A stretch of 64,000 nt of DNA from a virus (taxonomy: Duplodnaviria > Heunggongvirae > Uroviricota > Caudoviricetes): the IMG/VR virus record IMGVR_UViG_3300035703_000003. One strand, given 5' to 3'. Below the pieces are notes generated by a model. The model saw nothing but the letters and a program-made list of their open reading frames with translations, had not been told where the DNA came from and did no database searches. Positions 61,036-63,224 of the stretch are shown here, in pieces. The position numbers were made by a program, and so were the translations under genes. The first letter of the stretch is position 1. Each line of letters opens with the position of its first letter.

Positions 61036-61383
61036 TTAATCTATACCTAAAATTAGTTTTGCATCTTCACTCATTTTGTCTGGGCCCCATTCCGGAGTAA
61101 ATGTAATATCTACATCTACATTATTAATGCCAGTAACTGACCAACACGCCATTTTCACATCCATTACAATATCGTCTACACTAGGGCAAAACGGACTAGT
61201 TAAACTCATTAGTATGTGACACTTATCGTTTTCGATCGATATATTATATATCAGCCCAAGATCATAAATGTTAACACTAATTTCTGGATCATATACGTGT
61301 TTTAAATTTTCGACAATTCGTTCAAGTCTGTTACTTGTGTCAGCATCTTGAATGTCAACATGTCCTCGTGATTCCTGAACCAT
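61036..61383 (-). CDS. SufT/DUF59 (MIP18-like) Fe-S assembly protein; start uncertain
   Basis: VYDPEISVNIYDLGLIY, MSLTSPFCP, PEWGPDKMSE. Confidence 0.88.
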   Translation of the reverse strand: MVQESRGHVDIQDADTSNRLERIVENLKHVYDPEISVNIYDLGLIYNISIENDKCHILMSLTSPFCPSVDDIVMDVKMACWSVTGINNVDVDITFTPEWGPDKMSEDAKLILGID

Positions 61384-61568
61384 ACTTCTATCCCGTGTCT
61401 TTGATGGTCGTAACGCCAGCCTCCGTAATTTTCGCCAAACTGACTGTTTAGTAATGTTACGAAGGCGGATCTGTTAAAATAGTTTTCTTTAATGAACATT
61501 GTGCAATAAAACTTATCGTCTTGTTGCCAATTAGCACACCACTCTAAATTAAGAGGCAAATTCCCCAT
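61302..61568 (-). CDS. Hypothetical protein of the F-x4-D-x3-F-K-L family; start uncertain
   Basis: EVWFRNHEDMLTFKML. Confidence 0.5.
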   Translation of the reverse strand: MGNLPLNLEWCANWQQDDKFYCTMFIKENYFNRSAFVTLLNSQFGENYGGWRYDHQRHGIEVWFRNHEDMLTFKMLTQVTDLNELSKI

Positions 61569-62025
61569 CTTCACGATGTCCTTGGCGATACGCCATATTG
61601 CTATCGGTTTCACGCACTTCTACACGTGAGCACCACAGGCGTTCAGCTTCGCCATAGCTTGGTAAGAAAATCGTATTGATGTATTCATAAAGGAAGTCTG
61701 CAATGCCTTCGCAGCCAGTTTTACTTACCATTGTAATTTTAGCAAGTCCTAGTTCGCCTAGGCGCAATAATTCGTCCTTCTTAGGATCGTCTTCTGCTAC
61801 TAGTAATGTATGATCAAACCAATCTTCTAGTAATCCTTTTAGCGGCTTAAGACCGCCGTAATCCATTGCCCAATTTCTAGCATCTAGTTCATCTGTTTCA
61901 AATTCGAAATGAAAACTAAATGCATATCCGTGAATTTGATTGCAATGACTGCTAGCTCTCCACTGACGATATGCACATGGTGCAATTTGTCTATAAGTTT
62001 TAGTCGATACGTATTTCTTTGCCAT
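61549..62025 (-). CDS. queD: 6-carboxytetrahydropterin synthase (QueD/PTPS family)
   Basis: SHCNQIHGY, DYGGLK, FDHTLL, GCE, VEVRET. Confidence 0.85.
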   Translation of the reverse strand: MAKKYVSTKTYRQIAPCAYRQWRASSHCNQIHGYAFSFHFEFETDELDARNWAMDYGGLKPLKGLLEDWFDHTLLVAEDDPKKDELLRLGELGLAKITMVSKTGCEGIADFLYEYINTIFLPSYGEAERLWCSRVEVRETDSNMAYRQGHREDGEFAS

Positions 62026-62030
62026 TTTAT

Positions 62031-62089
62031 ACTCCCATGCAATACGGAGTGTGCGGAATATTTATAGTGGGTCGAACACCTAGTCCACT
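62031..62089 (-). ncRNA. Candidate preQ1-I-like riboswitch/pseudoknot leader of queD
   Basis: AGUGG-ACUAGGUGUUCGAC-CCACU-AUAAAUA..ACACUCC..GGGAGU; P1 stem, A-rich linker and a P2 that competes with an anti-SD hairpin. Confidence 0.5.
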
Positions 62090-62103
62090 TGTATTATTAC
62101 TTA

Positions 62104-62691
62104 TCATCGTTTGTCGATGACCTTATCTGCAAGCCCATATGCAACAGCTTCTTGTGCTGTCATAAAATAATCACGATCCATGTCACGTTCGAAATCTTCA
62201 TATGTCTTACCAGCAGTATTATGCTTAACATACAAATCTGTCAACATACGTTTCATTGCAGTGATTTCTTTATATTGGATTTCAATATCACTCTGCATAC
62301 CACGAGCACCACCGCTAGGTTGGTGAATCATTGTGCGACTGTGCGGCAATACATAACGTTTACCTGGTGCACCTGCTTGTGCCAGGAACGACCCCATACT
62401 ACATGCTTGTCCCATTACAACTGTAGCAACATCTGGTCTAATATATTGTATAGTATCGTAAATGCTCATACCTGCAGTAATAACACCACCCGGACTGTTA
62501 ATGTAAAGTGTAATATCTTTATCTGGATTTTCACTTTCTAGAAACAGTAGCTGACTTACAACAAGATTAGCACTGTAATCTTCAACTGGACCATTTAGCA
62601 TTACTACACGGTCTTTAAGCAAACGACTGTAAATGTCGTAGCTACGTTCGCCTTGACTTGTTTTGTCAATTACGATAGGCACTAGCCCCAT
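62104..62691 (-). CDS. clpP: ATP-dependent Clp protease proteolytic subunit
   Basis: [37 protein letters not shown]. Confidence 0.95.
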
Positions 62692-63224
62692 TGTGTTACT
62701 CCTAAATCACTGTATGCAATTTGAATTGCTTTGCTTTGATAGAATGCGTCTGCATATGCGTTGTGCAGATTTTTTTGCATTTTTTTACGTGGATCTTCTC
62801 TTAGCAATCCAAGCAATGTTCTGCTATCACGAATTTGCCAAAACTGCCATGGAATTGGTCTACCTAAACTACGATAAATGTTTTCTAACATAGTATAATC
62901 GAAACCGTAACCTTGGCCCCAAAAGATGTCTACACCAACAATCCACTTGTTTAGTGCATCGAGAAATTCGTCTACACCAACTGCGTCAGTTTGATCAAAC
63001 GCTTCATTCATAATTTCTGGATCTTGCTTTGCCCACCATTCTAGTGTGCTATCGCTAACTGTGCGACCTAAACGATCTTGGTCGTCGATACTAAGTTTAA
63101 AATAAAATTTATCGTACGGTTCGTCAGCACTGTAAGGATTAAACTTTACACCGCCGATTGTTAAGATGGTTGCACTAGGACTTGTGTCTAGTGTCTCTAA
63201 GTCTATTGTTGCGTGAATTGTCAA
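62682..63224 (-). CDS. DEDDh 3'-5' exonuclease (Rv2179c-like)
   Basis: IDLETL, WG.G..FD, RDSRT, HNAYADA. Confidence 0.85.

Follow-up and report, generated by a model that had tools for sequence, protein, structure and literature searches.

A conserved pseudoknot in front of phage queD genes as a candidate metabolite-sensing ON riboswitch

Comparison of phage queD leaders points to a model in which the RNA directly upstream of queD is a metabolite-sensing riboswitch that turns translation on, either as a new class or as a strongly remodelled variant resembling preQ1-I, and we put the probability of this reading at roughly 65%. In this model, a compact H-type pseudoknot would form the aptamer and would compete for one of its own strands with a helix that masks the ribosome-binding site (RBS) of queD. 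The literature searched contains no description of an RNA motif, riboswitch or otherwise, in front of phage queD.

The leader lies in the window, by which we mean the whole 64-kb stretch of DNA analysed, which comes from an uncultured jumbo phage. It fills the 78-base minus-strand spacer between clpP and queD (62026-62103), and the genes on its two sides are as follows.

62104-62691, minus strand: clpP, the upstream gene (PF00574, E 2e-79), ending in UGA UAA
61549-62025, minus strand: the queD-like gene, the regulated gene, with its AUG at 62025-62023; 158 aa, T-fold, PTPS/QueD family PF01242 (E 9.7e-16), motif CxxxHGY

Because the gap between the clpP stop and the first helix of the pseudoknot (P1) is short, at 14 nt, the leader is probably co-transcribed with clpP, and near the queD leader no promoter signal above chance was found. 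The product of the regulated gene is 67.7% identical to QueD (gp119) of Acidovorax phage ACP17 (tblastn); since its TIGR03367 score of 36.5 bits lies under the NCBI equivalog cut-off for QueD (89.25), we refer to it as QueD-like. Every motif-linked QueD-like protein inspected has CxxxHGY and not the QueD signature CxxxHGH, so that a Tyr seems to take the place of the third zinc histidine, and sequence searches returned no PDB relative of these proteins.

Several further features surround the two genes. A DUF59/FeS-assembly-P protein (61036-61383, minus strand; PF01883, E 2.7e-17) and an Rv2179c-type 3'-5' exoribonuclease (62682-63224, minus strand; PF16473, E 2e-35) are encoded nearby, neither with an obvious link to deazaguanine synthesis, and a 103-aa open reading frame with a GTG start (61302-61613) overlaps the 3' end of queD. 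Within the clpP coding region, 62350-62521 (minus strand) gives a sub-threshold match to the E. coli sRNA family C0719 of Rfam (25.1 bits, gathering score 50, E 0.0014), which most likely reflects chance or coding-sequence similarity. Near the junction of the exoribonuclease gene and clpP there is a weak SAM-II-like match (62764-62836, minus strand; 16.8 bits versus a gathering score of 44), with a terminator-like hairpin and T run on the opposite strand (62748-62770, plus strand).

Read on the minus strand, the RNA is AGUGG-ACUAGGUGUUCGAC-CCACU-AUAAAUAUUCCGC-ACACUCC-GUAUUGCAU-GGGAGU-AUAAA-AUG, letter for letter as given in the original prediction. Its fold is an H-type pseudoknot with a P1 of 5 bp and a P2 of seven pairs around a U/C mismatch, followed by the Shine-Dalgarno sequence (SD) and its complement, and its elements run from 5' to 3' as listed here.

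62085-62089, minus strand: P1 5' strand, AGUGG, pairing with 62066-62070; the two inner G-C pairs are invariant
62081-62084, minus strand: loop L1, ACUA; consensus N-C-U plus 0-8 variable nt, the first base variable and the C conserved in at least 90%
62076-62080, minus strand: P2b 5' strand, GGUGU, the variable part of the knot helix, pairing with 62048-62052
62075, minus strand: invariant U, opposite C62053 in the U/C mismatch inside P2
62073-62074, minus strand: P2a 5' strand, C-G; consensus C-R, with C:G invariant and R:Y never unpaired
62071-62072, minus strand: loop L2, AC, whose invariant C is the last base before the P1 3' strand
62066-62070, minus strand: P1 3' strand, CCACU, pairing with 62085-62089
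62056-62065, minus strand: L3, the A-rich linker AUAAAUAUUC, 10 nt; consensus N-U-A-N-A-N-A-N-U-C, with six invariant positions
62054-62055, minus strand: P2a 3' strand, C-G; consensus Y-G
62053, minus strand: invariant C of the U/C mismatch, opposite U62075
62048-62052, minus strand: P2b 3' strand, ACACU, pairing with 62076-62080
62046-62050, minus strand: anti-SD, ACUCC, with ACU common to the P2b 3' strand; forms a 5-bp hairpin with 62031-62035
62031-62035, minus strand: SD, GGAGU, 5 nt before the AUG

Across the family, P1 has the consensus A-G-N-G-G with C-C-N-C-U, P2b consists of 4-6 variable pairs, P2a is C-R paired with the Y-G of a conserved tail UCYGC, and L2 is N(N)C, 2-3 nt long with the C invariant; P2 as a whole, a helix broken by the mismatch, comprises 7-9 pairs. 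Folding of the window leader by itself gives no support for structure (nested minimum free energy -13.1 kcal/mol, z = +0.92, with 173 of 200 shuffles folding as well), and the support is comparative.

This comparative support comes from at least 129 distinct aptamer cores found on IMG/VR viral contigs, each of them in the leader of a queD gene, and 126 of these cores are in a MAFFT alignment (A1). In A1, 93.4% of pair cells are paired versus 33-51% when the partners are slid, and the covariation score is 0.485 versus at most 0.106 in the slid registers; many of the sequences are related, and shuffle-based statistics overstate their independence, a problem of which the slid-register control is free. 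P1 is paired to 98.9% and P2 to 89.4%, and 8 of the 12 pairs, including all five of P2b, show changes on both sides. The third P1 pair is C-G in 75, A-U in 31 and U-A in 20 of the 126 aligned sequences, and C-G in 75, A-U in 32 and U-A in 22 when the 129 cores are counted from anchors with no alignment fitting. The same anchor-based count gives an R:Y pair that is Watson-Crick in every core (A:U 106, G:C 23; on A1, A:U 105 and G:C 21), and a P2b that is 83% paired versus 30-49% in shifted registers and 52% with the tails dealt among the sequences. Both helices are thus supported by the covariation analysis of phage queD leaders that the original prediction had called for, and the pairing of loop GGUGU with tail ACACU that it had proposed is not only present but is the covarying helix. 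Because P2b tolerates G-U pairs (67 cells in A1), the structure belongs to the mRNA-sense strand. That this is a genuine structured RNA is, in our judgement, virtually certain.

Sixteen columns of A1 are invariant, and the fixed positions in loops and mismatch are the L1 C (at least 90%) with the U that follows it, the U/C mismatch (U facing C in every one of the 129 distinct cores), six bases of L3 and the L2 C. The identity of the third P1 pair is mirrored at L3 positions 4 and 6 (mutual information 0.92 and 0.83 bits): where this pair is C-G they are Y and A, and where it is A-U or U-A they are A and Y, and this covariation persists within a single class of expression platform. As these two positions track a pair of P1, we suggest that L3 forms base triples in the groove of P1, an arrangement known from other H-type knots. 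Fixed loop bases together with a linker that varies in step with P1 are typical of a ligand pocket and a triplex.

In another reading of the leader, the element works without any ligand, as an RNA thermometer, as a folding or stability element, or as a hairpin combined with a T4-type late promoter. Two alternative structures in balance could respond to temperature or to the speed of transcription, and the late promoter consensus TATAAATA, to which the original prediction drew attention as a caveat, is indeed present in the linker at 62059-62066 (minus strand). However, TATAAATA is not enriched, with 4 occurrences in the window versus 6.3 expected; it is broken, to TATAAACA, in relatives whose QueD is 97-98% identical and which keep all pairings; and a late transcript starting there would miss P1 and the 5' half of P2. 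The caveat is therefore weak, and we reject a late promoter as the conserved function of this segment, TATAAATA being one spelling of the L3 consensus, unenriched and lost in relatives. A thermometer, for its part, needs neither sixteen invariant columns nor covariation between a loop and a helix. We regard a ligand-independent element as very improbable, and return to the metabolite-sensing riboswitch.

The motif is closely linked to one gene. Among 80 IMG/VR loci selected solely on the similarity of their QueD (75-100% identity), 54 have the same architecture directly before queD regardless of the gene that lies upstream, and one further locus has a divergent copy. About a quarter of the close queD homologues are without the leader and are translationally coupled to the upstream gene, and it follows from this absence that control by the leader is dispensable. 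With a 23-nt pattern derived from the QueD-anchored loci and then scanned on IMG/VR viral contigs, 118 of the 120 viral contigs among the matches listed proved to carry the motif, compared with a control pattern of equal information and one changed base that returned 25 viral contigs, 22 of them chance matches. Of the 173 instances listed in all, 169 have a QueD homologue as the next gene downstream, three are separated from queD by a single small open reading frame so that queD comes second, and one is a chance match. A covariance model built from the family (R1) finds one copy in the 64-kb window (62044-62091, minus strand; 48.7 bits, E 6e-8; next best 10.4 bits). In five phage genomes of 214-382 kb it likewise finds a single copy per genome, every time just 5' of the only PF01242 gene.

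To judge from the contigs, the motif is carried by aquatic, uncultured phages, most of them large. A BLAST search of 50,697 GenBank phage records with two leader types found nothing, or chance matches in the RBS part, and tblastn with two QueD subtypes returned no cultured relative above 68% identity. R1 has no match in Acidovorax phage ACP17, Xanthomonas phage X1, Synechococcus phage BUCT-ZZ01 or Achromobacter phage Motura, in all of which queD is embedded in an operon. In bacterial and archaeal genomes the pattern matches are mostly chance, and 2 of the 120 listed are the motif, both on contigs of metagenome-assembled genomes (MAGs). These two copies, on a 5.5-kb contig of a Bacteroidetes MAG (L227) and a 32-kb contig of the Rickettsiales MAG MED657 (L273), are probably on phage contigs binned into MAGs and may hint at hosts.

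The sequence that follows the aptamer varies among lineages, with at least four platform designs. In 148 of 151 distinct leaders, the RBS pairs with the area of the P2 3' strand in a contiguous helix of at least 5 bp, and in 146 of the 151 this helix overlaps P2b by at least 2 nt. In 84 leaders this masking helix covers the SD (for example, ACUCC/GGAGU in the window and CCUAUG/CAUAGG elsewhere) and in 64 the AUG (for example, GUCAUC/GAUGGC and AAGUCAUC/GAUGACUU); its mean length is 6.25 versus 4.44 for shuffled arms, a shuffle-based value to be read with the relatedness of the sequences in mind. The P2 3' strand is found 12-30 nt before the SD, where it overlaps the anti-RBS arm. In the window, the overlap of ACACU with the anti-SD ACUCC is present as originally described, the two pairings compete, and knot and masking helix are mutually exclusive and, with -6.2 kcal/mol for the anti-SD hairpin and an estimate of -6.2 kcal/mol for the P2 duplex, balanced. 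Because the masking helix uses the P2 3' strand, formation of the knot should expose the RBS, and the ON logic put forward in the original prediction is in this modelled form borne out by the 148 leaders in which the P2 3' strand overlaps the masking arm. The ON reading is derived from the mutual exclusion of pairings, and the modelled change is modest: the probability that the RBS is unpaired rises from 0.48 to 0.62 with the P2 strands engaged, and is 0.51 with a control constraint.

Riboswitches are classically recognised by a conserved aptamer joined to interchangeable platforms. The phage leaders display the general features of such RNAs, namely a covarying conserved aptamer, variable platforms and a consistent association with a metabolic gene, and we consider it very probable that the RNA regulates the translation of queD in cis. 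The formation of a compact pseudoknot also frees the RBS in ON riboswitches of the guanidine-III type, although these are unrelated to the phage queD motif in sequence, conserved bases and gene association.

Control in cis could also be exerted through a protein. T4-type phages use pseudoknots and hairpins in leaders as protein operators (gene 32 and the RegA targets), and at T4 gene 32, as at queD, the 5' leader of a phage gene holds an H-type pseudoknot that controls, or at queD would control, translation. By analogy, QueD itself or a repressor of the RegA or gp32 type might shift the balance between knot and masking helix, and the invariant unpaired bases would be compatible with a protein site as well. 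The gene 32 knot nucleates the cooperative binding of its own product, whereas the conservation of the queD motif is aptamer-like. The small size of the knot (about 45 nt), its predicted triples and its buried mismatch are what small-molecule aptamers typically show. Moreover, the contigs that carry the motif are very diverse, as are the QueD subfamilies linked to it, a 195-aa form among them, and no candidate binding protein co-occurs with it in the loci examined. A translational operator bound by a protein therefore seems to us rather unlikely, and we infer that a small molecule drives the switch.

Which class of aptamer this would be is a question on which the comparison with preQ1-I bears directly. 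In preQ1-I riboswitches (types I-III; B. subtilis queC, T. tengcongensis and E. coli), a specificity cytosine lies next to P1 (PMC10622847). The phage RNA is likewise a very small H-type pseudoknot with a G-C-rich P1 of 5 bp, often exactly AGAGG/CCUCU, and an A-rich L3 after P1; it too is a putative cis-regulator of a gene of the 7-deazaguanine pathway that would act on translation. The loop ending in AC, with a C resembling the ligand-pairing base, had been part of the original prediction, and the cytosine that precedes the P1 3' strand is in fact invariant in both the QueD-anchored set and A1, in the position of the preQ1-I specificity C, with the exception of a single lineage of three identical contigs that has a U or a shifted P1.

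It would thus be conceivable that the leader is a divergent true member of preQ1-I that binds preQ1 or preQ0, with the queuosine-precursor pool of host or phage as its signal. However, the preQ1-I model of Rfam (RF00522, gathering score 39 bits), the search with which had been proposed as a check, has no match at E <= 10 near the motif, whether 106 nt or 2 kb are searched, and on the five motif-bearing genomes its best score is 15 bits or less, with none at the positions of the R1 motif. P2 is twice as long, with 7-9 pairs and an invariant U/C mismatch versus 3-4 pairs in preQ1-I. The P2 3' strand of preQ1-I includes the SD (OFF), whereas that of the phage RNA excludes the SD and competes with an anti-RBS helix (ON), reversing the logic. 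In preQ1-I the U directly after P1 contacts the ligand; the A noted in its place in the window is real but not special, as the first L1 base of the family is A, U or C, and the conserved L1 bases are the C and U that follow it. The phage L3 is longer than that of preQ1-I and ends in an invariant UC, and, unlike preQ1-I, the motif occurs almost only on phage contigs, in phages apparently without QueC. What stands of the original proposal of a preQ1-I-like riboswitch is accordingly a conserved pseudoknotted cis element tied to phage queD, and what falls is membership in that family, for which RF00522 is silent. We hold true membership to be unlikely, and a metabolite sensor of a new or strongly remodelled class remains the preferred reading.

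The lineage that departs from the invariant cytosine deserves a separate remark. In L373 (1955-2033, plus strand), and identically in L380 and L387, the L2 C is replaced by U and the other features are kept; alternatively, P1 is shifted inward by one pair. This copy precedes a 194-aa QueD-like subfamily of which other members (L111 and L091) keep the usual C, and a scan with a C-to-U pattern found this single lineage. It could be a specificity variant, and a single lineage does not suffice as an argument for a second ligand.

The only Rfam family with a match at the motif is the pistol ribozyme (RF02679), with which the leader has in common a P1 of 5 bp, a pseudoknot between loop and downstream sequence and an AUAAAUA linker, and which is likewise frequent in phage-related DNA; the possibility of a related self-cleaving ribozyme has thus to be weighed. 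In the search of 106 nt the match reaches 11.5 bits (E 4.2), the gathering score being 34.5. The P2, P3 and G-U cleavage site of pistol have no conserved counterpart in the motif, whose UCYGC segment pairs with the loop and not with a downstream strand, and the motif is additionally tied to an RBS-masking helix. With P2, P3 and the cleavage site missing, identity with pistol is rejected, and a relationship to it seems to us exceedingly improbable.

The metabolic setting bears on the ligand of the proposed riboswitch. Within the 64-kb window, queD is the sole pathway gene found, and pathway genes were sought in the five large motif-bearing genomes (G001-G005, the records behind L158, L122, L116, L144 and L148). 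All five encode FolE and, near folE, a homologue of ACP17 gp125 (43-59% identity), a protein that bears the DpdL signature LxxxHRHxF. DpdL has been proposed to decarboxylate CDG to 7-deazaguanine in phages that have FolE, QueD and QueE and are without QueC (Cui et al. 2023, PMC10516641). No full-length QueC was found in the five genomes; three of them have short partial QueC matches, one of which, over 65 positions, reaches the family cut-off (26 versus 22 bits). Given DpdL and no full-length QueC in these genomes, preQ0 and preQ1 should not be made by these phages, which argues against membership in preQ1-I, weakens preQ1 as the signal, and favours 7-deazaguanine, CDG, guanine or the pterin substrate. 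Neither the Pfam TGT model nor the DpdA-like protein of ACP17 detected a transglycosylase in the five genomes, which divergence may explain; their transglycosylase, if any, would be very divergent. Each of the genomes has 8-19 radical SAM matches (PF04055), many of them clustered.

We propose that the aptamer is the compact H-type pseudoknot, its A-rich L3 probably lying in the P1 groove as triples. When the ligand is absent, the P2 3' strand would serve as the 5' arm of the helix that masks the SD or, in other phages, the AUG; when it is bound, the knot would form, the masking helix would be broken and queD would be translated. The invariant C of L2 suggests a ligand with a guanine-like face, and candidates are 7-deazaguanine or CDG, guanine, and the QueD substrate dihydroneopterin triphosphate, all of which share such a face that the invariant C could read. 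It would be unusual for a riboswitch that senses a product to turn a biosynthetic gene on. A switch activated by the substrate would fit the ON logic at the branch point of folate and deazaguanine synthesis.

To our knowledge, the known riboswitch classes have all been defined in bacteria. Copies in phages are usually borrowed host classes. Against this background it is tempting to speculate, and we would give even odds, that the queD leaders are the first phage-specific class, a rebuilt preQ1-I-like knot with a long P2, a U/C pocket and L3 triples that senses a different molecule and turns queD on. The molecule sensed could be the phage's own 7-deazaguanine or CDG, guanine freed by DNA transglycosylation, or dihydroneopterin triphosphate, and the gene switched would be that of the first committed enzyme of 7-deazaguanine modification of DNA, so that pterin derived from GTP would be withdrawn from the folate route only as supply or demand permits. 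The short length of the RNA allows its study in vitro without culture of the phage. If this reading is true, phages evolve metabolite sensors of their own, and the leader would provide a very small natural ON aptamer (about 45 nt) for a purine- or pterin-like ligand, as well as a handle on the timing of deazaguanine DNA modification or its balance against folate metabolism. A riboswitch class confined to phages would then govern the committed entry step of a DNA modification pathway that counters restriction.
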